From a virus (lineage: Duplodnaviria > Caudoviricetes), in the IMG/VR virus record IMGVR_UViG_3300037755_000349, positions 1 through 64,000 of that record: 64,000 nt of DNA; one strand, written 5' to 3'. Shown one piece after another: positions 849 to 23,922 of this stretch (positions are counted from its first letter, which is position 1; each line of letters begins with the position of its first letter). Made by a program: the position numbers and the translations under genes. A model generated the notes under the pieces. It searched no databases and was not told where the DNA came from. It saw only the letters and a list, made by a program, of their open reading frames with translations.

Positions 849-971
849 TCCTGGGCCTCGCACTACAACAACCACGGCTAACAGCCGGAGAACCGAGTCG
901 CAACGATCGCCGTGGCCTTGTGGGTCACGATCCTCCTGGGGTCGGTGGCGTGCGCTCATCAGAGCAACGTC

Positions 972-2609
972 ATGGACCACCTATCCGAGCATCTTCAGGG
1001 TAAACGCCACCCCGTTCAGATCCTGACCGAGATCGCGGCCGAAAGGATGCGCCGCGACTTCATGCTGTTCCTGCGCCGCGGCTGGCACATCATCGAGCCG
1101 AAGCTCATGCAATGGAACTGGCACCTCGGCGCGATCGCCGAGCACCTGGTCTACCTTACGCAAGGGGAGATCCGGTTCTTGATGATCAACATCCCCCCGC
1201 GCATGACGAAGAGCCTGCTGTGCTCGGTGGCCTGGCCGGTGTGGCATTGGTTGCAGCGGCCCGAGACTCAGTTCATCGGCGCCAGCTATGACGAGTCCCT
1301 CGCGCTGCGTGATGCGGCACTCGCTCGGCGCCTGGTCGAGTCCTCCTGGTATCAACAGCACTACGGCGGGATGTATTACCTGCTGCCGGATGACAATGCG
1401 AAGAAGCTGTACCGCAACAGCAAGGGCGGCTATCGAGTCACCACGTCGGTCTCGGGCAAGAGCACCGGCGAGGGCGGCGACATCCAGCTCCTCGATGATC
1501 CGCACAACGCACAGAAAGTCGAGAGCGACACGGTTCGACAGACCGCCGTCTCCTGGCACGATAACGCTTGGCGATCACGCCTCAACGATCCCAACAACTC
1601 GCAAAAGGTTTACATCGGCCAGCGCACGCACGACGGCGATATCTTCGGCCACGTCCTCGCGCAGGAGGGCATTCGCTGGTGCCACCTGGTGCTGCCGATG
1701 GAGCACGATCCAAAGCGTGTTTGCATCACGTATGCAAACAAGGGCGAGGGACCGGATAAGGAGCAAGAGATCTTCCGCGATCCGCGCAAGAAGGAAAACG
1801 AACTACTGAATCCCGGCCGGTTCAACAAGAAGACGGCGCGCGCTGAACGCGAGGCGATGGCGGAGCGGTCCTACAATGCACAATATCAGCAGCAGCCCGA
1901 GGGCGCCGGCGGCCTGATCCTCAAGCGCAACTGGTGGCGGCCCTGGAAGTTTCCGGACTGGCACCCCAAGGCGAACAAGGACCGCGACCTGCCGGAATTC
2001 ATGGAGATCATCCAGGTCTACGACACCGCATTCGAAGAAGACGAGGAGGCGGACTTCACCGCGCGCACGACGTGGGGCGTGTTCGAGAACCGCGATCTAT
2101 TCAAGGACCCGCGCACCGGCAAGGTCAAGGAGGGCAAGGTGCGCGTGTGTGCGCTGCTGCTCGATCGGTACAAGGAGCGCGTGGAATTCCCCGACCTGAT
2201 TGATGAGATGGTGGAGTCGGATCAGAAGTTCGCGCCCGAGATCATTCTCATCGAGAAAAAGGCGAGCGGCCACTCCGCGATCCAGACCATGCGGCGCAAG
2301 GGCCTGCCGGTCAAAGGCGTGAAGCTCACCGATGGCGGGGACCTGGTGAACCGGGCGCACATGGCCAGCTACATGCTCAAAAAGGGCTGCATCTACTACC
2401 TGTCGCGGAACTGGTCGATCGACGTGATCGATGAGTGCGCGAAATTTCCCAACGGTGAGCACGACGACCAGGTGGCGAGCTGCGTCATTGCCTGGCAGTA
2501 CATGCGCCGCTATCACGATCTGACGACCGAGGACGAGGCGAAGCAGGACATCGCGCCCTTCACCTGGAAGCGCGCGACCGGAGAGGATCGCGCGCTTCGA
2601 TACGCATAA
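972..2609 (+). CDS. terL: Terminase large subunit
   Basis: INIPPRMTKS Walker-A-like motif, LLDDPH Walker B, YNAQYQQQP, C-terminal FPNGEHDDQV nuclease motif; upstream GTG at 912 is an alternative start. Confidence 0.92.
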   Translation: MDHLSEHLQGKRHPVQILTEIAAERMRRDFMLFLRRGWHIIEPKLMQWNWHLGAIAEHLVYLTQGEIRFLMINIPPRMTKSLLCSVAWPVWHWLQRPETQFIGASYDESLALRDAALARRLVESSWYQQHYGGMYYLLPDDNAKKLYRNSKGGYRVTTSVSGKSTGEGGDIQLLDDPHNAQKVESDTVRQTAVSWHDNAWRSRLNDPNNSQKVYIGQRTHDGDIFGHVLAQEGIRWCHLVLPMEHDPKRVCITYANKGEGPDKEQEIFRDPRKKENELLNPGRFNKKTARAEREAMAERSYNAQYQQQPEGAGGLILKRNWWRPWKFPDWHPKANKDRDLPEFMEIIQVYDTAFEEDEEADFTARTTWGVFENRDLFKDPRTGKVKEGKVRVCALLLDRYKERVEFPDLIDEMVESDQKFAPEIILIEKKASGHSAIQTMRRKGLPVKGVKLTDGGDLVNRAHMASYMLKKGCIYYLSRNWSIDVIDECAKFPNGEHDDQVASCVIAWQYMRRYHDLTTEDEAKQDIAPFTWKRATGEDRALRYA

Positions 2610-2748
2610 CGTCGTCTCGATGACGGTGGCAGAAATCGCAGTAGTGACCTGACCAGCGATGCCGCGATCCGACCAGCTTGCCAGTTTTCGGGCTCCTGCC
2701 GCGGAAAACGGAGCACGGGATCACCGACTTCACTGTCTTCGATTGCAT
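2560..2748 (-). CDS. Small Cys/His hypothetical protein
   Basis: MQSKTVKS...HYCDFCHRH; overlaps the terL 3' end convergently. Confidence 0.3.
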   Translation of the reverse strand: MQSKTVKSVIPCSVFRGRSPKTGKLVGSRHRWSGHYCDFCHRHRDDVMRIEARDPLRSRASR

Positions 2749-3233
2749 GGGATCTTGATCGAGCGAGGATCGTCCGGGCGCCCCGCGGTGGTGACGCCAA
2801 TTCGGAATTTGCAGGTCTCGCATTCGATGACGTAGACCCCGCAGCGCTTCGCCGGATACGGCAAATCGATCAAGCACCATGGCTCGCTCATGGCCTTGGG
2901 GTTACGCACATCGAGGTCGCGGCCATGCGGGTACAGCGGATCGGTCTCGCACTGCGGCTCGCGCATGCGGTCGATCCATTCAATCGTGTGCGTGGGTTTC
3001 TTGTTCATTGGGGGCCTTTGGGTAACTGAAATAGAAACCCGGTCCGTCCCTGGACCGGGGGAGTCACTGGTTGCTACCGCACGAATCCACTGCGCGGCCT
3101 GTTCGTAATCCTCCAAGTTTCGCTTGCTCATCCCATGAGCGCGGTATTCGTGGCGAAGCACGTCGAGGTCCGCGTTGATCGCCATAACGACACGCCATAG
3201 GCCGCGGAGCACAGACGGAGGTGGCTTGCTCAT
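2730..3233 (-). CDS. Hypothetical protein with Cys-rich C-terminal domain
   Basis: Starts 3 bp after the sigma stop; LPYPAKRCG..CETC..TAGRPDDPRS..C putative Zn-binding domain. Confidence 0.55.
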   Translation of the reverse strand: MSKPPPSVLRGLWRVVMAINADLDVLRHEYRAHGMSKRNLEDYEQAAQWIRAVATSDSPGPGTDRVSISVTQRPPMNKKPTHTIEWIDRMREPQCETDPLYPHGRDLDVRNPKAMSEPWCLIDLPYPAKRCGVYVIECETCKFRIGVTTAGRPDDPRSIKIPCNRRQ

Positions 3234-3236
3234 GGT

Positions 3237-3782
3237 TCATCTGTCCCACGTCATCACGCGTATGCGTGACTTGGCTTGCGTCACGTACTTCTCGACGGTG
3301 TGAATCGACAGGCCGAGTTTTTCGGCCACCTCTTCGTAGGACATGCCATCGCGCTTGTGCGCGAGCAGTACTGCGGCATGCGTGGGCGGGAGTTGCGCCA
3401 CTGCCCTATCGATCTGCTGCTGGAGATTTAATCGATCCGCTATATCGTCCGGCACTACCTGCGAAGGATGTTCGTCCCATCCCTTCAGGACGTTGCCATC
3501 AGCATCGATCAACTCACCTCGTTGATCGCGTTTGAACCACTGGCTCTCGTGCTCGACCTCGATACGAAAGTCGCACAGCACATGCGATGCAATGCCGTAC
3601 AGATAGGCGAGTGGCTTGTGCACGACTTTCTCGTCATCCAGTCGCAGCAATCGCAGGTACACCTCCTGCGCCAAGTCATTCACATCTTGCGGTTGACGCA
3701 AGCGGCGCATCAAGTAGCGATGCAATTCGCGGCGATATCGTCCGAACATCGAAGCGGCAAATTTTCTAACCAGAGTTTCCAT
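3237..3782 (-). CDS. ECF (sigma-70 group 4) sigma factor, FecI-like
   Basis: Region 2 (DVNDLAQEVYLRLL, AYLYGIASH) and region 4 (LPPTHAAVLLAHKRDGMSYEEVAEKLGLSIHTVEKYVTQA); GAGGT RBS upstream. Confidence 0.93.
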   Translation of the reverse strand: METLVRKFAASMFGRYRRELHRYLMRRLRQPQDVNDLAQEVYLRLLRLDDEKVVHKPLAYLYGIASHVLCDFRIEVEHESQWFKRDQRGELIDADGNVLKGWDEHPSQVVPDDIADRLNLQQQIDRAVAQLPPTHAAVLLAHKRDGMSYEEVAEKLGLSIHTVEKYVTQAKSRIRVMTWDR

Positions 3783-3993
3783 GGGGGTACACCTCAAAGA
3801 GACGTTGCCTGCGAGCGTTGTAGACGGCGATCACCCCGTCCGTGTCCCGATCTATTTGTCCTCCGTTCTCGACGGCGCGCTGCGCCTGGTTTTGCCATTC
3901 ACTGCCAAGCCGCACCAGGGGAACATCGATGATCGAACCGGTGTAGACGAAGCCCTGGTAACGGCGGCGGTTATTGACTCTTAATCGGTCCAT
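3766..3993 (-). CDS. Hypothetical protein
   Basis: GGAGG RBS; overlaps the sigma start by 17 bp. Confidence 0.5.
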   Translation of the reverse strand: MDRLRVNNRRRYQGFVYTGSIIDVPLVRLGSEWQNQAQRAVENGGQIDRDTDGVIAVYNARRQRLFEVYPHGNSG

Positions 3994-4003
3994 GAGATCC
4001 TCC

Positions 4004-4040
4004 AAAAAAAGGCCGCCGGGCTGGGGGAAGCCAGGCGGCC
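4004..4040 (-). terminator. Intrinsic terminator downstream of the DUF932 gene
   Basis: GC-rich stem (GGCCGCC/GGCGGCC) followed by T7 on the minus strand. Confidence 0.7.
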
Positions 4041-4087
4041 GAGGAGAGGGCCAGCGCGATTATTAGCGGGTACGCCGGCCCCGTGGA

Positions 4088-5179
4088 TCAGGCCGCTCGC
4101 TTCACCGGCTTGGTGAGCAGCGACTGCCAGTCCTTGCTCGCCAGCTCGACGAGCAGGCCACCATCGGTTTCCAGCTTGGTGGCCATGTCGTAGTTCTCCT
4201 CGTCCTGGCTCTGACGGGTGATGGCGTTCGCCAGGCCCCACCGGCTCAGATCGCCGCCCTCGATCAGATGGCGCAGTACGCCTTCCTTCGTGGACTCGTT
4301 GTAGCTGAAGCGCGTAGCGGCGAGTTCGACCACATCCTCGATCTTGCCCTCGATCTTCTGGCCGGCGGCTTCGCGCATCGGATTGGTGATCTTCTCGAAC
4401 ACGTCCTGCTTCATCACCCCGCGCACGGTGTCCTGCACCTTGGCCCACAGCGCGGTGTCATCGAGTTCCTTCGTGCGATCGCTGAACATCTCATAGGCTT
4501 CCTCGGTCTCGCCCGAGGCGCGCTTGCCCACATGCGTGCGGCGCTGCCCGTAGTCCTGCATGATCATTCCGTTCTTGCAGGAGAGGCGGAACACCAGCGG
4601 CGCCACTTGCAGCGCGCCCGAGCCAACCTCGCTATTCGAGATCACAATGCCGGCCTGCACGACATCCCCGACGTTGGCGATGCTGGTGGAGATCTTGGGG
4701 AACACGGCCTTGATGTAGAAACGCGTGTCGGTCAACTGCGTGGACTCGATGCGCAGACCATCGTACTCACGCAGCACCGGCATCACGGCGTTCGCGAGAT
4801 CGAAATTGTCGAGGGGGCGGTACTTGTCGGAGAGCACGGCGCGCACGCGATTATCGAGGGTGCGCAGCATGCGGCGCGTGGGCTCACGATGCAGCAATTC
4901 GGTGAGCGTGTAAGCCAGCATATCGGGATGATCGGCGCGAAGGCGATGGTAGAACGTGGCCGGCACTTTGAGCAGCTCGGCGAATTGGCCGTGAGCATGA
5001 TCGTTGATTGCCATTCTCACCGGGCCTTTCGAGCTATCGAGGCGCACGGCAAGTGTCGTCGGGACGAGGGCGTCCTGGAACACGCTCACCTTGCTTGTGT
5101 CGGCGATGAAGTCGCGCTTGGAGGCGCTTTGGCGTTCTATTTCGGCGGCCATTTGCACGAGGGTAAGACCTGATTTCAT
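4088..5179 (-). CDS. DUF932-family phage/plasmid protein
   Basis: RAVLSDKYRPLDN, GIVISNSEVGSGAL, FRLSCKNGMI motifs; AGGAG RBS before ATG 5179. Confidence 0.72.
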   Translation of the reverse strand: MKSGLTLVQMAAEIERQSASKRDFIADTSKVSVFQDALVPTTLAVRLDSSKGPVRMAINDHAHGQFAELLKVPATFYHRLRADHPDMLAYTLTELLHREPTRRMLRTLDNRVRAVLSDKYRPLDNFDLANAVMPVLREYDGLRIESTQLTDTRFYIKAVFPKISTSIANVGDVVQAGIVISNSEVGSGALQVAPLVFRLSCKNGMIMQDYGQRRTHVGKRASGETEEAYEMFSDRTKELDDTALWAKVQDTVRGVMKQDVFEKITNPMREAAGQKIEGKIEDVVELAATRFSYNESTKEGVLRHLIEGGDLSRWGLANAITRQSQDEENYDMATKLETDGGLLVELASKDWQSLLTKPVKRAA

Positions 5180-11931: not shown

Positions 11932-12166
11932 ACGCGTGTACCTGTGGCCACGCTCCCGAGGAGCATGGCGGCGATCCAAAGCACCCCGGCTCGACCGCGT
12001 GCCAAATAGAAGGATGCGATTGCATCGCTTACGATGAGGAAGAGGGCGACGGATGGGAGGATGAGCAAGCCACACACGGCTACGGCGATGACGAGTTCCC
12101 GTTCGGCCCATAGGTTATGCACATCAACAACCAGGAGCGAACGTTAGGGCGACGGTGCAGCTATGA
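11916..12166 (+). repeat. 16-bp exact direct repeat GACGGTGCAGCTATGA
   Basis: Copies at 11916-11931 and 12151-12166 flank the 11928-12113 gene. Confidence 0.85.
11928..12113 (+). CDS. Small Zn-binding protein with acidic tail ending EFPFGP
   Basis: CTCGH..EH..CQIEGCDC followed by a D/E-rich tail. Confidence 0.6.
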   Translation: MNACTCGHAPEEHGGDPKHPGSTACQIEGCDCIAYDEEEGDGWEDEQATHGYGDDEFPFGP

Positions 12167-12186
12167 GCCGTCATCAGAGGTGAGCG

Positions 12187-12340
12187 ATGAATGGTAACGA
12201 GACAATTGTGGACGGGCTGTTCGCCATAGCGGCGTCACTTGATGGTGTGGCGAGGGCTATTAGCAAGCTCGGGCTTGCGGAAGCATCAACGCCGATGGGC
12301 GACTCTGCAAATTTCTGAGGTCGTCAAGCACGACACATGA
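12187..12340 (+). pseudogene. Probably frameshifted small gene
   Basis: ATG 12187 frame stops at 12318, while another frame runs on to a TGA that is ATGA-coupled to 12337. Confidence 0.3.
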
Positions 12341-12609
12341 ACACCGAAGACTTCAAAGCCAGCTACCTGGAGCGCCTTATCAAGCGACTGGTCGACGACG
12401 GCGGCCAGCCCACGCCCGAGGCCGAGAGCATCGCGACCGAGCTGTACAGCCACTGCCCGCGCTTCGACATGGCGGAGGAGTACCAGCAAGATCCCGAGGC
12501 CGCGGCCGACGTTGCGTATGAGGACTGGGAGGAGGCCGACGATTTGGACGAGGATGACGAGTGGGCCGGCGACGAGGATCAGGAGGAGAACGAGTTTCCG
12601 TTCGGATAA
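12337..12609 (+). CDS. Highly acidic small protein ending EFPFG
   Basis: C-terminal half dominated by D/E. Confidence 0.6.
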   Translation: MNTEDFKASYLERLIKRLVDDGGQPTPEAESIATELYSHCPRFDMAEEYQQDPEAAADVAYEDWEEADDLDEDDEWAGDEDQEENEFPFG

Positions 12610-12613
12610 CACG

Positions 12614-12772
12614 ATGCACATCGGTGAAATGGTGATATTTGGCGCGATTGCCCTGGGCCTGAGCATTGCAGCCAGTCAGGCGCGATCGCAATTCGTTGCC
12701 GGTGTACTTATCGCCTACGCTACTATTGCGGCCACGTTGCTATTCATTGCGGCGGCAAGCGGGAGGAACTGA
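12614..12772 (+). CDS. Small membrane protein
   Basis: Two hydrophobic stretches in 52 aa. Confidence 0.45.
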   Translation: MHIGEMVIFGAIALGLSIAASQARSQFVAGVLIAYATIAATLLFIAAASGRN

Positions 12773-12773
12773 G

Positions 12774-13070
12774 ATGGTTCAGCGCGAGGTCGTGTTCATC
12801 GATCGATATCGCTTGTGGAGGCTTAATGAATTGGCCGCGATCGCTTCGATCATCGACGCACGTGCTCGCTACCTCGGCGATCTCTTGGGGCCACGATCGC
12901 AGCCGTTCGATGAGTTTTTCATACACAGATCGTCGCGGGAATTAATCGGTATCGACTTCCTTGTGGAGAGCCAGACGTGCGTACTCGTGCCGGAAGGCGC
13001 GGTTTACCAGATCACCGACTTGGAAGATTTCATACAGCGTTCACGCTCGATTGCGACGAGAAGCGCATGA
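12774..13070 (+). CDS. Hypothetical protein
   Basis: GGAGG RBS; ATGA-coupled stop. Confidence 0.5.
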   Translation: MVQREVVFIDRYRLWRLNELAAIASIIDARARYLGDLLGPRSQPFDEFFIHRSSRELIGIDFLVESQTCVLVPEGAVYQITDLEDFIQRSRSIATRSA

Positions 13071-13339
13071 ACCGCCGTCAATTCCTTGCCGGCCTGGGCG
13101 CCGGCCTCGCCACGATCGCGATCACGACCAGGCTCGCCACCACGGAGCTGCTGCCGAAGAACATCACTGCGCGGTGGGATCTCGAACGCGATACAGCCAC
13201 CATCGAGATAAGCGGGACCGATCAGTATGGCAACCGGATCGAGGAGACTATTCGGGTATCGTCTGAGCAAGTGGAAAATGGCGGCGAGATCCGGATGAAG
13301 CGTTTCAAGATGATCGACACCGTGGTGGCTGGCGCATGA
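13067..13339 (+). CDS. Tat-like leader plus fragment resembling structural protein 22476-23159
   Basis: MNRRQFL leader; TATIEISGTDQYGNRIEE vs TATVTIVGTDVYGSLMTE. Confidence 0.65.
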   Translation: MNRRQFLAGLGAGLATIAITTRLATTELLPKNITARWDLERDTATIEISGTDQYGNRIEETIRVSSEQVENGGEIRMKRFKMIDTVVAGA

Positions 13340-13665
13340 ACCGTCGAGGATTCCTCGCTGCCGCCGTCTCGGCCGCGCTGGCGCCGAAGGCCCTGATCCA
13401 GCCAGGCGTGCAGGTCTTCGAGACCGTGGCCATGGCGCCGGCGATCGCTGGTGACTTCGAGATTAGTTCGCTGCGTTACGCGGCGACGGAGCGATACAGC
13501 AATGCATTGATTGCCCCGAGTGTTTTCCGCGATCAGCTCCTCGATGGGCTCAACGAAGTATTTAGAAAGGCGCATGCCGAGCACGAACCAGGTGAGTGGG
13601 AAAAGCTGTTCGCGATCGAGGCGGATCAGGAGCCGCCAACAGAGTGGGCGAAGTTATCAACATAG
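13336..13665 (+). CDS. Tat-like leader plus permuted major-capsid C- and N-terminal segments
   Basis: MNRRGFL leader; GDFEISSLRYAATERYS and FRDQLLDGLNEVF match the capsid termini. Confidence 0.7.
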   Translation: MNRRGFLAAAVSAALAPKALIQPGVQVFETVAMAPAIAGDFEISSLRYAATERYSNALIAPSVFRDQLLDGLNEVFRKAHAEHEPGEWEKLFAIEADQEPPTEWAKLST

Positions 13666-13673
13666 GGGTGCGT

Positions 13674-14096
13674 ATGAAGTTCGATCCTCAGTCCTTTCGT
13701 GAGCGAGTGGATGCGCTCTTCGATCACGCCGACAACGGCATGCCGAGCGCGTACTTCGAGATCCCCGACACGGCGAACGACTGGCAACCGATGCGCGTGC
13801 ACTATCACGTCATTGCGTTCGCGGCCGAGAGCGCGGACATCGCGGCAGCTCGCGTGTTCCAGGAAGTGCAGAAGCTGCGCGCCACCGTGCCCGGCCTGGC
13901 CTGGCTCTTCTGGCGCAACGATCCGCGCATGACTTCCGAGTTCGACACGAGCACCGAGGGGATGGCCGAGGCGCAGATCGAGGACATGGAGCCGTGCTGG
14001 TTCAGGGTGAGAGTGCGCATTGCCGTGCCGAGAGGCGACTGGACGCAGGTCGAGCACGACCAGACGGAAGCGACGCGCATCCTGCTGACGGACTGA
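13674..14096 (+). CDS. Hypothetical protein
   Basis: AGGGG RBS; TGATG-coupled to the next gene. Confidence 0.6.
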   Translation: MKFDPQSFRERVDALFDHADNGMPSAYFEIPDTANDWQPMRVHYHVIAFAAESADIAAARVFQEVQKLRATVPGLAWLFWRNDPRMTSEFDTSTEGMAEAQIEDMEPCWFRVRVRIAVPRGDWTQVEHDQTEATRILLTD

Positions 14097-14398
14097 TGTT
14101 CGCGTCGATCATCAGAGAGCGGCTCCTCGCCGGACTCAATGACGTTTTTGGCATGCAGTACAAGGCAACCGAGCGATATCAATTCGGATGGCATAGGGAC
14201 GCGTGGGCTGGTGCGCTGCCAGTACCGACCTGGGAGCATTGTCTGCTCTGCCATCGAGAGACCCCGCATCTCGGCCATTGTGTCTATACAGCTTGGCATC
14301 CAAGCGGCAATGGCATCGCCGATCGCATGGAGGCTTACGGGCTCGACATCACGAATCCCGAGCATGTGCGCGAGTTCTCGGACGCGATGAAAAACTGA
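14096..14398 (+). CDS. Chimera of capsid termini and the scaffold C-terminal motif
   Basis: GLNDVFGMQYKATERYQFGW and MEAYGLDITNPEHVREF. Confidence 0.7.
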   Translation: MFASIIRERLLAGLNDVFGMQYKATERYQFGWHRDAWAGALPVPTWEHCLLCHRETPHLGHCVYTAWHPSGNGIADRMEAYGLDITNPEHVREFSDAMKN

Positions 14399-14400
14399 GG

Positions 14401-14901
14401 ATGCATGTGATGGACTTGGCCGATGTGATGCACGTGTACACCGGTTCGAACGGCACGGCCACGCGTGACATGTATCAGAAGCTCCTCGGCTACGGCCCTC
14501 GCGGCGTGATCGCAATCAACCTGTTCCGCGCGCAGAAGTGCAGCGAGCGCGCCAAGGTGTACCGAGGAGGCGGCTATCGCAGCAGTGCCTACGAACGTAA
14601 GCAATGGTCGATGAACAACCTGGTGGACGTGCTTGTCGTGCACGCGGCCGACTGCGGCATCATGTGGGGGTGGGGCACCGACGAGAAACAGGACTTCCAC
14701 AAGGTCGTGCTGTACCTGGACCTACCCACCGGCCAGGTGAGTTTCCACGCCGCTGTCCGCGGACAAGGTCCGGACTACCCCGGACAATGGGACGGCCAGG
14801 CCGGCGCCTCCCCTGGCCGGATCTGTCGCTACGTGGCCGACGTATTCGCTACCATACCGATCGAGGACGGGCGGGGCCTGGAACTACCCTTAGCCGAATA
14901 G
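14401..14901 (+). CDS. Conserved-looking phage hypothetical protein
   Basis: AINLFRAQKCSERAKVYRG..VLYLDLPTGQVSFH. Confidence 0.65.
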   Translation: MHVMDLADVMHVYTGSNGTATRDMYQKLLGYGPRGVIAINLFRAQKCSERAKVYRGGGYRSSAYERKQWSMNNLVDVLVVHAADCGIMWGWGTDEKQDFHKVVLYLDLPTGQVSFHAAVRGQGPDYPGQWDGQAGASPGRICRYVADVFATIPIEDGRGLELPLAE

Positions 14902-15059
14902 GCCAAGCAGGCGCCGTCCCTGCGGCGTGCCAGTGCTGCTACTAGCGTCACTCGGGGCCAAGTGTCGCCCGTCCATCCTCAAGGCGCTAAGATCCGCCCG
15001 TCCCGGCCCCCTGCGTTCAGGCGCCCGGCATCCAGCCGCCGCGATCGCCAGAGGGGTCC

Positions 15060-17600
15060 ATGCCCAAGCCATACAGCTCCACGCTCGTCGAACTGTCGCC
15101 CGAGGAGCCGCGCCCCTCGATGCAGCCGGACGGCTCGCGCATCACGCGCAACGGTGACGGCACCATCACCATCGAAGGCCAGCAGCAGGCCGGTCCGCGT
15201 ATCCCTGTCGAGGGCGACTTCGACGAGAATTTGGCGCCGTACTTCACCGCCGGCGAACGGCAATTCGTCGCTGAGCAGCTCATCGAGTACTCGCGCGTGG
15301 ATATCGAGTCGCGCGCCGACTGGGAGCTGAAGGAGGAGCGCTGCCTGGAGATGCTCGGGATCAAGGACATCCCGCCAGAGCGAGATGAGTCGCCAGGCTT
15401 CCATAAGGTCACGCATCCCATGCTCGTTGAGGCGTGCGTGCAGTTCCAGGCGCGTGCGATTGCAGAGTTCTACCCGGCCACCGGCCCGGTGAAGTGCACC
15501 CCAATCGGCAAGCGCAGCCGCCGACGCATTGAGCAGGCCGATCGCGTCGAGACTTTCATGAACTACTACCTGACCGGGATCGACGCCGGTTACTTTCCGG
15601 ACACCGACCAGATGTTGCTGTACCTGCCGATGTCAGGCAGCGCATTCCGCAAGTGCTCGCCGGATTGGCGCACCGGCCTGCCGCAGCTCAGGTACGTGAA
15701 GGCCACGAATTTCATCGCGCCGTACTCGGGCTTGTCGCTGGACACAATGCCGCGCTATGCACACCGCTACACGATGAGCGGCCTGGATATTCAGCGCTCG
15801 ATCGACCGCGGCATGTTCTACGACGTGAACCTGCAACCCCCTGCGATGGGAGAGGCGCGGCACTCGCGCACGGAGGACACCGCGGATTTCCGCGAGATGG
15901 TGATGCACGAGGACGATCGGCTGTACAACATCCTCGAATATCACATCGAGATGCCGCTCTCCTCCCCCGAGCTGCCGGAGCACGAGGATGGCGCCACGCT
16001 GCCGTACATCATCCTGGTCGAGGAGACGAATCGCGAGATCCTCCTGATGCGGCGCAACTGGAAGCAGATGGATGAGCAGCGCCGTAAGCGCATTTGGTTC
16101 TCTCACTATCGGTTCTTGCCCGGCCTGGGCTTCTACGGCTTCGGCTTTCCGCACGTCATCGGCTCGCTCGGCCGCGCCGCCTCGGGCGCCGTGAACGCGC
16201 TGCTCGACTCCGCGCTGATGGCGAATCTGCAAGGCGGCTTCAAGACGAAGGAGGCGAAGAACAGCGCGAAGGAATACCGGCTTACCCCTGGCGTGTGGAC
16301 CGATGTAGACATGGCCTACGACGAGATCTCGAAGGCGTTCTACACCCCGCCTTTCCGTGAGCCGAGCCCGGCCCTGTTCCAGCTCCTCGATCGCCTGGTG
16401 GCCGCCGGCCAGCGCTTCGCCTCGACCACGGAGGTGATGGTCGGGGATGCCGACAACCGCGGCCCGGTGGGCACGACGGTGGCGCTGATCGAGGAAAGCT
16501 CGCGCGTCTATACCGCGATCCACAAGCGCATGCACAACAGCGCGGGCGAAGAGTTCCGCATGCTCTCCGAGTACATCGGGGAGTACATGCCCAACGAGTA
16601 CACCTACGACTTCGACGACCAGACGCGCACGCTGCTGCAAACCGACTTCGATGGCCGCGTCGACGTGGCGCCAGTGTCGGATCCGAACATCTTCAGCTCG
16701 ACACAGCGTATCGCGCTCGCGCAGGCCGTAATCGAGTTGCAGATGCAACGCCCCGAACTGTATCCACCACAGAAAGTGATCGCCGCGCACCGGCGCCTGC
16801 TGGAAGCGCTGCGCGTGCCAGATCTCGATGAGGTGGCGCCCGAGATGGACATGCCGAAGTTCATCGACGCGGTGAGCGAGAACGGTTTGATGCTGGTCGG
16901 CAAGGGCACGCGTGCATTCGAGTATCAGGATCACCAGTCGCACATGCTGATCCACCAGAACGGTTTGCAATGGGCGATGGCCGCGAACCAGGAACCCGAG
17001 CAGCAGCAGCAGATCGCCGCGGCGTTCATGGCCCACATCCGCGAGCACCAGGCGCTGCACTATCGCTCGATGATCCAGCAGCAGCTCGGCATGCCGTTGC
17101 CGCCGCTGGATGAGGCCGGCATGCCGCAGGAAGTCGATCCGGAGTTCGAGGCCCGGTTGAGCCAGGCCGTCGTGCAGGCGCTGCCGCCCCCGCCCCTGCC
17201 TCCGGGCCAGGAACAGCAGGCCGCGGAAGGCCAGGCCGTGCTCGACAAGACGCAGGCCGCGATCAAGGCGAAGGAGATGGATGCCACCGCCAAGGTCGAG
17301 CGCGACACGATGGCGTTCGTCGGGGAGGAGAAGCGCAAGGAGGTGGCGTTCCAGAACGACCAGCGCCGGCAAAATGTGAATCTTGCGTTCGATCTGTCGC
17401 GCCAGTCCAAAGGCGCGAACCTCCAGGATCGCATCAAGGATCGCCAGGCATCCGCAGACCTGATCCGCACCGGCGTGAAGGGTAAACTGGCGCAGCGGCA
17501 GACCGAAGCGCAGGGTAAGCTGAAGATGAACCTGGCCGCCGAGCAAGCCAAGGCGAAGGCCAAGACGGTGAAAAAGAAAGCCAATGGAGCGTCACGTTGA
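15060..17600 (+). CDS. Portal protein (P22-like) with long C-terminal extension
   Basis: 846 aa; HPMLVEACVQFQARAIAE, GFYGFGF, GTTVALIE..AIHKRMH, VSDPNIFS motifs; first gene of the head operon. Confidence 0.88.
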   Translation: MPKPYSSTLVELSPEEPRPSMQPDGSRITRNGDGTITIEGQQQAGPRIPVEGDFDENLAPYFTAGERQFVAEQLIEYSRVDIESRADWELKEERCLEMLGIKDIPPERDESPGFHKVTHPMLVEACVQFQARAIAEFYPATGPVKCTPIGKRSRRRIEQADRVETFMNYYLTGIDAGYFPDTDQMLLYLPMSGSAFRKCSPDWRTGLPQLRYVKATNFIAPYSGLSLDTMPRYAHRYTMSGLDIQRSIDRGMFYDVNLQPPAMGEARHSRTEDTADFREMVMHEDDRLYNILEYHIEMPLSSPELPEHEDGATLPYIILVEETNREILLMRRNWKQMDEQRRKRIWFSHYRFLPGLGFYGFGFPHVIGSLGRAASGAVNALLDSALMANLQGGFKTKEAKNSAKEYRLTPGVWTDVDMAYDEISKAFYTPPFREPSPALFQLLDRLVAAGQRFASTTEVMVGDADNRGPVGTTVALIEESSRVYTAIHKRMHNSAGEEFRMLSEYIGEYMPNEYTYDFDDQTRTLLQTDFDGRVDVAPVSDPNIFSSTQRIALAQAVIELQMQRPELYPPQKVIAAHRRLLEALRVPDLDEVAPEMDMPKFIDAVSENGLMLVGKGTRAFEYQDHQSHMLIHQNGLQWAMAANQEPEQQQQIAAAFMAHIREHQALHYRSMIQQQLGMPLPPLDEAGMPQEVDPEFEARLSQAVVQALPPPPLPPGQEQQAAEGQAVLDKTQAAIKAKEMDATAKVERDTMAFVGEEKRKEVAFQNDQRRQNVNLAFDLSRQSKGANLQDRIKDRQASADLIRTGVKGKLAQRQTEAQGKLKMNLAAEQAKAKAKTVKKKANGASR

Positions 17601-18121: not shown

Positions 18122-18330
18122 CGGACAACTCGGCGCCCTTCGCGAACCGCGTGCTGAAGTGGGCGGGTGAAGAGCGCCTCGTCCTCATCGAGCACCTGGC
18201 GAAGGGTCTGGCCGAGCGCGAGTACTTGCTGACCTGCGGGCGCATCAAGCAGCTCGATGAGACCATCGCTCACCTGGAGGAGCTGTACCGCAAATACATC
18301 CAAGACGACGAGGAAGATGACGATGAGTAG
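18118..18330 (+). CDS. Small helical head-module protein (start uncertain: CTG 18118 or ATG 17830)
   Basis: EYLLTCGRIKQLDETIAHL resembles the small gene often found before phage GroES; acidic tail. Confidence 0.45.
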   Translation: MTDNSAPFANRVLKWAGEERLVLIEHLAKGLAEREYLLTCGRIKQLDETIAHLEELYRKYIQDDEEDDDE

Positions 18331-18877
18331 ACGAAACAAGGGCCGCGTATTTTCTTTGCCGCCCGTGATCTCGCGACCTGGCCCCTCGATGGGAGACGCG
18401 CACCGCGATCTGCACGATGCCGATCGCCACGTCGATCGCCGGCATGACACGGATGAAAACATCGAGCGATTGATCCGCGAGGCCGACAAGCAGGCCGCGC
18501 TTGAGCCGGTCGATGTGACGAACCTGCCGATGCAGCCGATGTTCTGGCACGTACTGGTCGAGCCGATGCGCGCCTCTGCGAAGATCGGCAGCGGCGTGCT
18601 GTACCAGGCCGATGAGAGCAAGCGAGTCGAGGAGATCCAGACGACAATCGGGCGCCTGGTGGCGATCGGACCTTGCGCGTTTACCGGCAAAACGAATGCC
18701 GGAAACTTCCTCGGCGAAGGGATCGAGCGCGAGAAGTTGATCAACAGATGGGTGATGTACGCCAAGCACACCGGCCAAGAGATCAAGCTGCGCACCGGCC
18801 ACCGATTGCTGCTGCTCAACGACTCCGAGCTGCTCGCATTCGTGGAAAATCCCGAGGATTTCCGGCACTGGCTTTGA
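18323..18877 (+). CDS. groES: GroES/Cpn10-like co-chaperonin
   Basis: PMFWHVLVEP..GSGVLY..GRLVAIGP..WVMYAKHTG..LLLLNDSELLAFVENP. Confidence 0.8.
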   Translation: MSRRNKGRVFSLPPVISRPGPSMGDAHRDLHDADRHVDRRHDTDENIERLIREADKQAALEPVDVTNLPMQPMFWHVLVEPMRASAKIGSGVLYQADESKRVEEIQTTIGRLVAIGPCAFTGKTNAGNFLGEGIEREKLINRWVMYAKHTGQEIKLRTGHRLLLLNDSELLAFVENPEDFRHWL

Positions 18878-19057
18878 TCGAGTTGGGCGTAGGTACGGCC
18901 AAAGAAAGCCGTACTTACGTCGTTCTTATGGGGTTCTTATTGGATAAAAATCCCATAGTTACCCTCACTGATATCAGCCGCGGAGATTAGAAAAGCCTCC
19001 CCTCGTTGCGGAAGATCCTCGCCGCACGTCGTGCAACACACGACAACGAGGAGCAAC

Positions 19058-20200
19058 ATGGCTCGCACACAAACCACTGGCGGCAAGGCAAAGGGGGGCA
19101 AGCAATGGAAGCCGGCCCCGACCGACCAGGAGAAACCTTTCGCTGAGATCGATCTCGGAGCGTCGAAGGACGGCATTCAGCGCATGGCTGACGAGCCCGA
19201 CGAGGATGCCGACGATGATCTGCCTGGTTCCGAAGGCGATGACGGTGAGCAGCCACGTGAGCGGCGCTTCATAGATCGTAGCAAGTCCGTGAGCAAGCGC
19301 CTCGGGCGCATGGAACGCAGCTTCAACCAGCGATTTGCGGATCAGGAAGCTCGATGGCAGCGCCAAGTCGCCGATCTCAAGCGCGAGAACAGTTCGCTAC
19401 GCGTCAATCGCGGGGTAAGCGAAGCCGACCAGGCCGCGCATGACAGCAAGATCGCGGCCTGGCAATCCGAACTCGAAACCGCCTACGAGAAGGGCGACAC
19501 CAAGAAACAAGCCGAGCTGACCACGAAGATTGCTCAGGCACAGGGTGAGTTCGAGTCGAAGAAGCGCGCTGCCATGCTCGGCCAGCAGCAGCACCAGGAC
19601 CGTGACGATCGACGCGATGCCGTCGACCAGCGCGGTGATCCCGACAACCGCGGCAACGGACCGACGCGCGAGGCGCGCAAGTGGATGCGTGCGAATGATG
19701 ACTGGTGGAACGATCCGGAGTTCGAGATCGAGAAGCAGGCCGCCATCGTCATCGACAACCAACTCATCGACGAAGGCTCCGATCCCAACGATCCGGAGCA
19801 CTACGAAGAGCTGCGCGAGCGCCTGCTCGACAAGTTCCCGGACATGGAATCGGAGATTGCGATGCCTAGCGCACGCCGTGGCCGCCGCGATGCGCGCCGC
19901 GATGACGATGAAGACGATGACCTCGACGATGACCGTGGCGATCGCCGCGATCGTCGCGACACGCGTGGCGCCCGCAACGGCAGCACGCGCCGCCCGCCCA
20001 TCCCGGCCTTCGCCGATCGAGGCGCAGATCGAGGTAATCAACCGCGGCGCTCCAACGGTCGCACTGTCACCCTCTCGCGCGCGCAGCGCGAGAACATGAT
20101 CACTTTCGGACTCGATCCGCAGAATGACGATCATGTGAAGGAGTACGCGAAGTCCGCCGAAGAAACGACGCGCGCCTACGCGCGTGAGGGTCGTCACTGA
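19058..20200 (+). CDS. Capsid scaffolding protein
   Basis: Charged coiled-coil; WMRANDDWW..DP..EHYEEL; position between portal and capsid. Confidence 0.7.
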   Translation: MARTQTTGGKAKGGKQWKPAPTDQEKPFAEIDLGASKDGIQRMADEPDEDADDDLPGSEGDDGEQPRERRFIDRSKSVSKRLGRMERSFNQRFADQEARWQRQVADLKRENSSLRVNRGVSEADQAAHDSKIAAWQSELETAYEKGDTKKQAELTTKIAQAQGEFESKKRAAMLGQQQHQDRDDRRDAVDQRGDPDNRGNGPTREARKWMRANDDWWNDPEFEIEKQAAIVIDNQLIDEGSDPNDPEHYEELRERLLDKFPDMESEIAMPSARRGRRDARRDDDEDDDLDDDRGDRRDRRDTRGARNGSTRRPPIPAFADRGADRGNQPRRSNGRTVTLSRAQRENMITFGLDPQNDDHVKEYAKSAEETTRAYAREGRH

Positions 20201-21454: not shown

Positions 21455-22360
21455 ATGATGACGCGTAGTGATTTCCGGAAGCAGCTTCAGGAGGGCCTGA
21501 ATGCTGTTTTCGGTGTTGAGTACAAGCGCCACCCAGAGGAGTGGCGTGCGATCTTCGACGTGGAGAATTCGTCGAAGGCGTTCGAAGAAGACGTGATGGA
21601 AGTGGGCCTGGGTGCCGCTCCCGTCAAGGCCGAGGGTGCCGCGATCGAGTACGACGAAGGGTACGAGACCTACGTCGCGCGCTACCGGCACGACACGATC
21701 GCGCTGGCCTTTGCGATCACCGAGGAAGCTGAAGAGGACAACCTCTACGGCAGCGTCGGCAACCGCATGAGCCGTGCGCTGGCTCGTTCCCTGCAACACA
21801 CCAAGGAAGTGAAGGGCGCGAACATTCTGAACTTCGGATTCGACACCAATTTCCCCGGTGGCGACGGAGTTCCGTTGTTCTCGGCCTCGCATCCGCTTGG
21901 TGGCGGGGGCGTGCTGTCCAACACGTTGGCGACGCCTGCCGATCTGGCCGAAAGCTCGATGGAAGAGCTGATGAACCAGATCAGCGAGTGGACGGACGAT
22001 CGCGGCCTGCCGATGAAGGCCATGATCACGAAGCTCATCATCCCGGTGGAGTTGCAATTCATTGCCGCTCGCCTGTTGATGAGCCCGTACCAGCCGGACA
22101 CGGGCGACAACAACATCAACGCGATCCAGAAACTCGGTGCGATCAGGGACGGCTATGCCGTCAATCACTACCTGACCGATCCCGACGCCTGGTTCTTCAA
22201 GACCGACACTCAGGACGGCTTGAAGCACTTCGTGCGGCGCGCTGTGAAGCGCGGCCTGGAGGGCGACTTCGAGACGGGCAACATGCGCTACAAGGCCAGC
22301 GAGCGGTATTCGCAGGGCTGGTCGAACTGGCGCGGTGCTGCCGGATCTGCGGGGGCCTGA
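21455..22360 (+). CDS. Major capsid protein
   Basis: GGAG RBS; QLQEGLNAVFG, KAEGAAIEYD, DGVPLFSASHP, YLTDPDAWF, RYKASERYS motifs. Confidence 0.88.
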   Translation: MMTRSDFRKQLQEGLNAVFGVEYKRHPEEWRAIFDVENSSKAFEEDVMEVGLGAAPVKAEGAAIEYDEGYETYVARYRHDTIALAFAITEEAEEDNLYGSVGNRMSRALARSLQHTKEVKGANILNFGFDTNFPGGDGVPLFSASHPLGGGGVLSNTLATPADLAESSMEELMNQISEWTDDRGLPMKAMITKLIIPVELQFIAARLLMSPYQPDTGDNNINAIQKLGAIRDGYAVNHYLTDPDAWFFKTDTQDGLKHFVRRAVKRGLEGDFETGNMRYKASERYSQGWSNWRGAAGSAGA

Positions 22361-22475: not shown

Positions 22476-23159
22476 ATGTCGCGTCAACTTCTGTCTCGGG
22501 CTACTGATCTTTTCCTCGGCGCCGTCGCCTACGCTCGCGCGTTCTCGGGCAAGTACGGTGCTCCTTTCTCACCCCTCGTCGTCCACAACTTCGGCGCTCC
22601 GATCATCGGGGATGCCGATGGCATCAGTGTGTCGGCGACGATCACCGCACCGGCCTCGGCCGTCATCGGTGGCGCGCTCGCCTCCGGTGGTGTCGCGACG
22701 TTCGACGTGCCGCGCAATGTCGTGGGCGCCTGGACGAACACGGCCACGGTCACGATCGTGGGCACCGATGTGTACGGCTCGCTGATGACCGAGGTCTCGG
22801 CCAGCGGGACCTCGCACACCGGAACCAAGGCGTTCAAGACGGTCACGTCTGTCACGCCGAGCGTCACGGTCACGGGCGCAACATTCGGTACGGGTGACGT
22901 ACTCGGACTGCCCTACCGCGTGGACAAGAACAAACTCATTGCAGCCCGCGCAGGGAACGCGATCGACGCTGGTGTATTCGTGCCGGCGGTGACGACCGAT
23001 CCGGCAACCGGGACCACTGGCGATGTGCGCGGCACGTTCAATCCGGCGGTGACGTTGGACGGCGTCGAGACAATCTCGGTGGTTTTCGAGATCGCGGATC
23101 GCTCTTCCAAAGTCGGGACCTACGGCGTCAAGCAATTCGGTAGCGCCGATAGCGTCTAA
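22476..23159 (+). CDS. Virion structural protein (decoration-like); paralog of 23260-23922
   Basis: Thr/Val/Gly-rich beta protein; DADGIS..PRNV..GTDVYG. Confidence 0.6.
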   Translation: MSRQLLSRATDLFLGAVAYARAFSGKYGAPFSPLVVHNFGAPIIGDADGISVSATITAPASAVIGGALASGGVATFDVPRNVVGAWTNTATVTIVGTDVYGSLMTEVSASGTSHTGTKAFKTVTSVTPSVTVTGATFGTGDVLGLPYRVDKNKLIAARAGNAIDAGVFVPAVTTDPATGTTGDVRGTFNPAVTLDGVETISVVFEIADRSSKVGTYGVKQFGSADSV

Positions 23160-23165
23160 CCAGTT

Positions 23166-23240
23166 TGCGGGGTGGCGCAGCGGCAGCGCGCCGGGCTCAT
23201 AACCCGGAGGTCGCAGGTTCAAATCCTGTCCCCGCAACCA
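23166..23240 (+). tRNA. tRNA-Met(CAT), initiator-like anticodon arm, encoded CCA
   Basis: Full cloverleaf: GCGGGG/CCCCGC acceptor, CCGGG-CTCATAA-CCCGG anticodon arm, GGTTCAAATCC T-arm, ACCA end. Confidence 0.93.
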
Positions 23241-23259: not shown

Positions 23260-23922
23260 ATGCGAGTACTCGAACGAATCGCGACGGTGATCACTGCCGA
23301 TCCGGACGGCATCGCCGCGTCGCAAACGCCCGCGGGAGCCGGGGACCTGGTGCTCGATGGCGCGACCGTGAAGGCCGACGACGGCACGGCCACCTACGAC
23401 ATCGGCGCCGCGGTGCTCAATCCGCCGCGTCGAGTGACCATCACCTCCGCTGCCGACATCTCCAACCGCACGCTCACGATCTACGGACGCGATCGCGTGG
23501 GCACCGAGATCTCCGAGACCCTCACCGGGCCGAACGCAACGACTGTCACCAGCGTACTGGTCTACAAGACGGTGAGCCGCATCTCGATCTCAGGGGCCGC
23601 GGCCGGCGCGCTCACGGTGGGCTTCGGCGCCGAGTTCATCACGCCGTGGATCGTGCTTGCGAACATGCGGGGTGATTATCACTGGCTCTCGCGGGTGTTC
23701 TTCGCTGCCGGTGGCACGGTGAACTACGACATCGAGGTGACGAGCGACAAGTACCTGCTGCAACGCTCGGGGGATTACTCCGATGACACCCACGCAGTGC
23801 TTGCCGCGCAGACGGCAAACACCGAGAGCAGCAACGATGCCAACTACGCAGCGGTGCGGCTCAAGGTGAATGCGACCGATGTGCCCGTGACGATGCGCGT
23901 CATTCCCTCTCGAACGGCATAA
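23260..23922 (+). CDS. Virion structural protein; paralog of 22476-23159
   Basis: AGGAGG RBS; ADPDGIA..PRRV..GRDRVGTEISE. Confidence 0.65.
   Translation: MRVLERIATVITADPDGIAASQTPAGAGDLVLDGATVKADDGTATYDIGAAVLNPPRRVTITSAADISNRTLTIYGRDRVGTEISETLTGPNATTVTSVLVYKTVSRISISGAAAGALTVGFGAEFITPWIVLANMRGDYHWLSRVFFAAGGTVNYDIEVTSDKYLLQRSGDYSDDTHAVLAAQTANTESSNDANYAAVRLKVNATDVPVTMRVIPSRTA

Follow-up and report, generated by a model that had tools for sequence, protein, structure and literature searches.

A conserved phage mini-protein with coat-like peptides, a predicted zinc knuckle and a scaffold-like tail

Introduction

Why would a tailed phage keep, immediately upstream of its head genes, a small protein which resembles parts of its own coat protein at one end and the tail of its own putative scaffold at the other? 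When tailed-phage and herpesvirus-like capsids are built, the key step of recognition is the docking of scaffold onto coat. The gene in question, m14096, lies in a stretch of 64,000 nucleotides (the window), which represents bases 1-64000 of a phage record described in IMG/VR as complete, with a length of 72,067 bp and direct terminal repeats. In the initial annotation, m14096 was read as coat-like peptides joined to a copy of the scaffold C-terminal motif, and the joint between the two coat-like pieces was attributed to a microhomology deletion. The mosaic composition has been borne out in our study, whereas the proposed origin has not.

Results

By its coat protein the phage can be classed as HTVC023P/CRP-901-like, as this protein is 50-56% identical to the coats of cultured Synechococcus/Planktothrix, Roseobacter (CRP-901/902) and Pelagibacter (HTVC023P) phages. 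The DNA of the region was unmatched among GenBank phages and no close relative was found in the IMG/VR scans. The positions of the large terminase and of the portal place m14096 within the morphogenesis arm (Table 1), where it stands at the end of a 12 kb hypervariable block of small genes filling the terminase-portal interval; terminase and portal are direct neighbours in the distant relative L003. The portal of the window has no match in Pfam or PHROG.

Table 1. Positions of the genes and sequence features of the window which are considered in this study.
Feature	Position	Strand	Basis or remark
Large terminase (TerL)	912-2606		Terminase_6C
m12977: Tat-type leader and a piece of head-region protein 22476-23159 (aa 78-126)	13067..13339	+	
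m13336: RR leader, coat aa 249-288-like part, then coat N-arm aa 1-37-like part	13336..13665	+	
m13674, 140 aa, cassette gene without assigned role	13674..14096	+	Homologues 39-41% identical in L032, L033
m14096, mosaic small protein, 100 aa (P0001)	14096..14398	+	7 homologues, dN/dS
m14096 aa 1-23, coat N-arm helix-like segment	14096..14164	+	BLASTP E 5e-5; N-arm HMM E 1.2e-4
m14096 aa 20-40, coat C-terminal strand motif copy (M/V)RYKAxERYxxGW	14153..14215	+	BLASTP, HMM, hhalign
m14096 aa 44-64, CCHC zinc-knuckle-like core PxW..CxxCxRETPH...CxY	14225..14287	+	Invariant residues; AF2 hairpin
m14096 aa 76-97, scaffold C-terminus-like helix-turn-helix M..(F/Y)GLDxxNxxHV+E(F/Y)	14321..14386	+	HMM, hhalign, AF2
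m14413, 162 aa	14413-14901		Just upstream of portal
Portal	15060-17600		>7,800 metagenomic homologues
GroES-like gene	18257-18877		Between portal and putative scaffold
Putative scaffolding protein, charged, 389 aa	19031..20200	+	Position between portal and coat
Major capsid (coat) protein, HK97 fold	21455..22360	+	PF25209 E 1e-11; AF2 and Foldseek
Polyvalent protein, 3,922 aa	38506-50274		InPase, ParB_N-like (below cutoff), ART-PolyVal and LPD38 domains

Several other features of the head region and of its relatives were recorded. The C-terminal half of the GroES-like gene product resembles GroES/Cpn10 (NCBIfam E 1.7e-5, below cutoff), and the Cpn10 matches are weak, faint or unmarked in its orthologues of L032, L034, L040 and L041. 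The genes 22476-23159 and 23260-23922, located 3' of the coat gene, encode paralogous proteins with 31% identity over 133 aa and are separated by a tRNA-Met (CAT) gene (23166-23240). Upstream of the portal, contig L038 carries a 1,111-aa gene (1560-4895) with intein and LAGLIDADG domains, which may be an intein-interrupted terminase, and in L041 a TROVE/Ro60 and vWA protein (1-1418) is encoded upstream of the terminase.

The reality of m14096 as a gene was assessed from its setting and its homologues. Its ATG overlaps the stop codon of the upstream gene (TGATG), the relatives likewise begin with MFA-, and the gene is co-oriented and tightly packed with its neighbours; no promoter-like site was found in 12000-15300 and no terminator-like site in the cassette 13067-15059. 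When 1.84 billion cluster representatives were searched exhaustively with phmmer, nine matches were obtained, namely the query, seven true homologues from related uncultured phages and one spurious protein, P0126 (2,675 aa), which matches through a DGDGTADR-type repeat. The 269-aa gene call of the homologue P0124 is probably too long, given an m13336-like ORF which shares part of its DNA in a different frame. Contigs with homologues were found through portal similarity (L032 and L033, where the homologues lie upstream of portals 79-81% identical to the window portal), and further homologues are present on the short contigs L035, L036 and L042; the homologue-bearing contigs are 1-8 kb long and do not include the scaffold C-terminus. 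In case of L037, the single match covers only the CxxCxRETPH knuckle.

Alignment of the eight family sequences has highlighted 15 invariant positions (R27, Y28, G31, W32, P44, W46, C49, C52, R54-H58, C62 and Y64). Moreover, pN (0.30-0.48) was lower than pS (0.48-0.76) in 15/15 pairs, with dN/dS of about 0.14-0.45 in most of them. The homologues, the invariant residues, the low pN, the TGATG overlap and the common MFA- start together indicate that m14096 is a real, selected and conserved accessory gene. The block is hypervariable with gene order shuffled among relatives, and the family is rare (nine matches in 1.84 billion, one of them spurious), as might be expected of recombination debris or of a chance likeness in an unselected ORF; however, a frame kept intact in eight divergent sequences, the 15 invariant residues, pN well below pS and profile E-values of 1e-4 to 1e-8 have largely refuted that explanation, which is now hardly tenable.

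Searches of Pfam, PHROGs, NCBIfam and PADLOC gave no match to m14096, and no solved homologue was found by PDB sequence search or by Foldseek of its AF2 model. The ESM Atlas search was likewise without a match (best score 0.79, TM below 0.4). Among GenBank phages, the protein query matched coat C-termini only (E at least 0.3). All that was recovered from the bacterial genome collection were true coat genes belonging to distant phages in betaproteobacterial MAG bins. In L002 and L038-L041, with portals 50-57% identical to that of the window, no mini-genes were found within 10 kb of the portal. The m14096 gene is absent from these and other more distant relatives which have the same head genes (L002, L038-L041, L043 and L044), and hence it is dispensable for assembly.

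The coat-like part of m14096 was compared with the coat protein of the same phage, whose AF2 model gave Foldseek matches to T5, HK97 and encapsulin shells. In this model the N-arm forms a helix (4-19) and RYKASERYSQG a long strand (277-288), which from HK97 topology is presumably the last P-domain strand; the source motifs are coat aa 2-24 (21458-21526) and aa 277-295 (22283-22339). Both coat matches described in the initial annotation were reproduced, as RERLLAGLNDVFGMQYK agrees with coat RKQLQEGLNAVFGVEYK at 10/17 positions and YKATERYQFGW with coat YKASERYSQGW at 8/11. By pairwise BLASTP, aa 1-23 of m14096 are identical to coat 2-24 at 12/23 positions (E 5e-5) and aa 8-40 align with coat 265-295 (E 3e-5). 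Further, HMMs were built from 38 coat homologues (the N-arm model covering coat aa 1-40) and searched against 1,411 six-frame window peptides. The N-arm model recovered only the coat, m13336 (E 2.5e-6) and m14096 (E 1.2e-4), the next peptide being at E 0.79, and the C-terminus model recovered the same two small ORFs (E 3.9e-6 for m13336 and 3.5e-4 for m14096), followed by E 2.3.

At the family level, hhalign placed the N-terminal motif on columns 274-296 of the coat alignment with 94.5% probability (E 7.9e-8), and the family-invariant R27, Y28, G31 and W32 correspond to coat R284, Y285 and G288, which are invariant in the 38 coat homologues, and to W289, which is at least 90% conserved among them. 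The N-arm HMM matched none of the four homologues with DNA sequence (0/4), and the N-arm-like piece was found only in the window phage; it is predicted as a low-confidence AF2 helix at aa 3-14 and is identical at 9/15 positions to the N-arm copy in m13336, nearly as close as to the coat itself. A complete HK97 capsid fold is absent from m14096, which has no Pfam match and is coat-like in aa 1-40 only. With about 40 of the 301 coat residues and no A-domain, E-loop or spine helix, it cannot form a shell.

Structural prediction with AF2 on the family alignment gave no confident structure for aa 1-40 and a pLDDT of about 70 for the C-terminal 60 residues, the N-terminal pieces being unpacked against the C-terminal helices. 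The coat C-terminal strand motif and a CxxC...H...C zinc knuckle constitute the family core, with the knuckle as its most conserved part. The four candidate metal ligands C49, C52, H58 and C62 are invariant in 8/8 sequences and an AF2 beta-hairpin (45-49/54-58, pLDDT about 70) carries the CxxC; from ligands and hairpin, the core is assigned as a CCHC zinc knuckle with predicted metal binding. An origin of this core as an HNH-endonuclease remnant with a co-converted capsid flank was also considered and rejected. In L040, a cysteine-rich, weakly HNH-like zinc-finger ORF (18887-19339) is located directly 3' of the coat gene, but its Pfam HNH match had an E-value of 0.27 and hhalign against the family gave it a probability of 5%.

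The C-terminal part was compared with the charged protein encoded between portal and coat. This protein has no Pfam or PHROG match, and we infer its scaffold role from position, composition and conservation only. Its tail, M..F(G/K)(L/M)DP.(N/D)..(H/D)V..(Y/W), is kept in six orthologues which are otherwise 37-61% identical, including M356, F359, D362, P363, D366 and V369. The reported likeness of MEAYGLDITNPEHVREF in m14096 to MITFGLDPQNDDHVKEY of the putative scaffold (20096-20146, its C-terminal motif) amounts to 8/17 identical residues. Taken singly the match is weak (pairwise E 0.001, window-wide tblastn E 0.45, scaffold C-terminus HMM E 0.089), and it becomes convincing through the homologues. 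hhalign of the family against the scaffold alignment placed the C-terminal region on residues 349-375 with 89% probability (E 2e-6), and the scaffold C-terminus HMM matched the homologues in L035 (E 6e-8), L032 (1.3e-5) and L036 (4.5e-4). AF2 predicts helices at 74-80 and 88-99 in this part of m14096.

Conservation of the scaffold-like motif within the family, by which this likeness was to be judged, was found in part: the tail is present in 5/8 members and missing from P0123, P0125 and P0129, which are shorter. As three of the eight members do without it, the core function of the family must be independent of the tail. The scaffold C-terminus HMM found the motif on no other protein of the window, and hence it is not a general cargo tag. 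In L042, the m12977 homologue (153-509) ends in ...HGLDPESMNH..., loosely like the GLDP.N..H of the scaffold tail.

The origin of the mosaic was then considered at the level of DNA. The hexamer TACAAG does encode YK at both coat sites (21521-21526 and 22289-22294) and in m14096 (14159-14164), as had been pointed out. From this, a duplicated capsid gene was supposed to have lost its core between two TACAAG copies, yielding a fusion which acts as a dominant-negative procapsid decoy. It is true that the two coat-like pieces join at this YK and that both coat similarities are significant. However, TAC accounts for 72% of Tyr and AAG for 79% of Lys codons, and 6/7 YK dipeptides in 13 large genes are encoded as TACAAG, so that codon bias leads one to expect a common hexamer. 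In DNA, the N-arm piece agrees with its coat counterpart at 38/69 positions (55%) and the C-terminal piece at 27/39 (69%), with third positions near random (9/23 and 7/13 identical), and due to this low identity no recent event is readable from the junction.

The homologues also oppose the deletion. A search of related phages for the same junction showed that, where the N-terminus is covered, their sequence upstream of YK resembles the coat C-terminus and an N-arm piece is missing; coat 263-290 aligns to the L033 homologue (54% identical) and coat 271-293 to that of L036. Hence the family predates such a junction, and with the N-arm piece specific to the window phage the TACAAG joint was not its founding event. 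Moreover, aa 7-32 of m14096 align to both coat termini, which resemble each other around (E/R)YK and make the junction inherently ambiguous. Deletion of the capsid core with a decoy as its product is thus very improbable. On the evidence of the homologues, the founding form of the family would have been the knuckle with a segment of the coat C-terminus attached to it.

Neighbouring mini-genes of the cassette were found to contain head-protein pieces as well. The m12977 piece of the head-region protein was detected by tblastn (E 1.5e-4), its leader scores 18.4 bits with TIGR01409 (above the 16.7 cutoff), and homologues occur in L032 and L042. The m13336 leader is conserved (MNRRGFLAAA...APK); TIGR01409 gave no match in the window copy and 14.5 bits, under the 16.7 cutoff, in L032. 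Homologues of m13336 adjoin m14096 homologues in L032, L035 and L036, and in those of L032 and L035 the N-arm copy is instead preceded by a piece resembling coat 136-148 (DGVPLFSA.HP). m14096 itself carries no Tat leader, as it starts with MFASII, has no RR motif and gives no TIGR01409 match. The gene m13674 is conserved beside m14096 homologues and found no family in Pfam, PHROG or NCBIfam searches, while m14413, which has no Pfam, PHROG or PADLOC match, has family members at 42-60% identity in 25 IMG/VR contigs that are otherwise unrelated. Cassette gene order is shuffled between relatives and the genes persist.

This arrangement raises the possibility that m14096, as a mimic of the scaffold tail, binds m13336, as a mimic of the coat, in a miniature coat-scaffold contact; such a complex could be exported jointly through Tat 'hitch-hiking', or it could keep free scaffold and coat buffered. 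Where the two genes adjoin (the window, L032, L035 and L036), 4/4 m14096 homologues are tailed, the L033 homologue is tailless with no m13336-like gene in 4.8 kb upstream, and the m12977 family scores above the TIGR01409 cutoff for Tat signals. On the other hand, only five loci are informative and these are phylogenetically related, and the m13336 leader stays under the Tat model cutoff. Such a partnership is considered decidedly unlikely.

Discussion

The reading that we favour, as a tentative one, is that m14096 engages the coat-scaffold docking interface in procapsid assembly. That it acts on head assembly is judged probable from its sequence features. The choice of the docking interface is favoured because the cassette copies the N-arm helix, the P-domain strand and the scaffold tail. 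In 80alpha, the scaffold binds through its C-terminal helix-and-hook to the N-arm helix and A/P cleft of the coat, a site for which CpmB of SaPI1 competes with the same motif (PMC5644958); similarly, the site for cargo peptides in family 1 encapsulins is made up of the N-helix and the P-domain (PMC11664910).

In the proposed mechanism, the disordered N-terminal peptide of m14096 would copy the last long P-domain strand of the coat, in the window phage also with an N-arm-like part, and would be followed by the zinc knuckle. The N-arm helix and P-domain on the inner surface of an HK97-fold shell would provide the docking site, as they do for scaffold C-termini and encapsulin cargo peptides. The scaffold-like tail may occupy the scaffold site on the coat, while the coat-like peptide may present a coat-like surface. 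As an outcome, scaffold-driven assembly could be modulated or competed with, or m14096 could be carried into the procapsid; dominant-negative or decoy action, as first suggested for this protein, is thus one of several live options. Short segments of head genes were probably copied into an accessory family anciently, followed by lineage-specific remodelling of the N-terminus.

A related explanation is that the tail, the coat-like strand or both serve as a ticket into the head, loading m14096 into the procapsid for delivery with the DNA. Packaging and injection are ascribed to polyvalent proteins, one of which (3,922 aa, with ART-PolyVal, InPase and LPD38 domains) is encoded by this phage. Moreover, m14096 is located immediately upstream of the head genes, and the logic of docking peptides is known from encapsulins (PMC11664910) and T4. 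However, the motif is on no other protein of the window, three family members have no tail, and a protein of 11 kDa could exit along with the scaffold. Loading into the head is regarded as a rather unlikely function.

Capsid-sensing defence systems exist, and m14096 may also be imagined to soak up or pre-empt host sensors which read coat and scaffold epitopes. The copied residues are the most conserved of the coat C-terminus, and the cassette is confined to a subclade, in a hypervariable accessory block. On the other hand, m14096 matches no known defence or anti-defence family, and its late-operon position would be too late for an early-acting decoy. Such an immune role appears improbable.

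A wider speculation, held to be of low probability, treats the whole cassette (13067-14398) as 'self-mimic' mini-proteins which rebuild the coat-scaffold interface outside the capsid. Here m13336, with coat P-domain strands and N-arm helix behind a twin-arginine leader, would act as the pocket, and m14096, with the scaffold tail on a zinc knuckle and a coat strand, as the ligand; their binding partners would be each other, the real coat and scaffold, or both. If true, the phage would have a titratable switch of procapsid assembly, a complex exported by Tat, or a weapon to use on co-infecting relatives with almost the same coat motifs.

Returning to the favoured action at the docking interface, the significance lies in a phage which itself keeps, under selection, a small protein with copies of both sides of that interface. 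To our knowledge, natural copies of a scaffold docking tail have so far been known only in satellite-encoded redirectors of capsid size. If m14096 binds coat or scaffold, docking motifs would be defined for an abundant, unstudied environmental phage group (>7,000 portal and coat metagenomic homologues), and a natural peptide tag for loading cargo into such capsids would become available.

Comparison with known systems has shown both likenesses and differences. With the coat protein (PF25209, Phage_capsid_4), m14096 has the RY..GW strand motif in common, plus the N-arm-like helix in this phage. P22-type scaffolding proteins have a C-terminal helix-turn-helix coat-binding domain. Like them, m14096 has a short C-terminal helix-turn-helix, as predicted by AF2, with a motif common to the phage's own scaffold; unlike them, it lacks the elongated body of a scaffold and is unrelated in sequence to P22 gp8. 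The internal proteins of T4 enter the head via a capsid targeting sequence. In these and in encapsulin cargo (PMC11664910), a short terminal peptide addresses the protein to the inside of an HK97-fold shell, whereas the presumed address of m14096 is a copy of the scaffold tail and is present on one small protein only. CpmB of SaPI1 (PMC5644958) is like m14096 in being a small protein with the coat-docking C-terminal motif of the resident scaffold, but it is satellite-encoded, forms a helical dimer and redirects capsid size, while m14096 is the phage's own gene and has a zinc-knuckle body with coat-derived peptides. Scaffold-tail mimicry is a known theme, and the m14096 family, with eight unannotated sequences, is a new variation on it.
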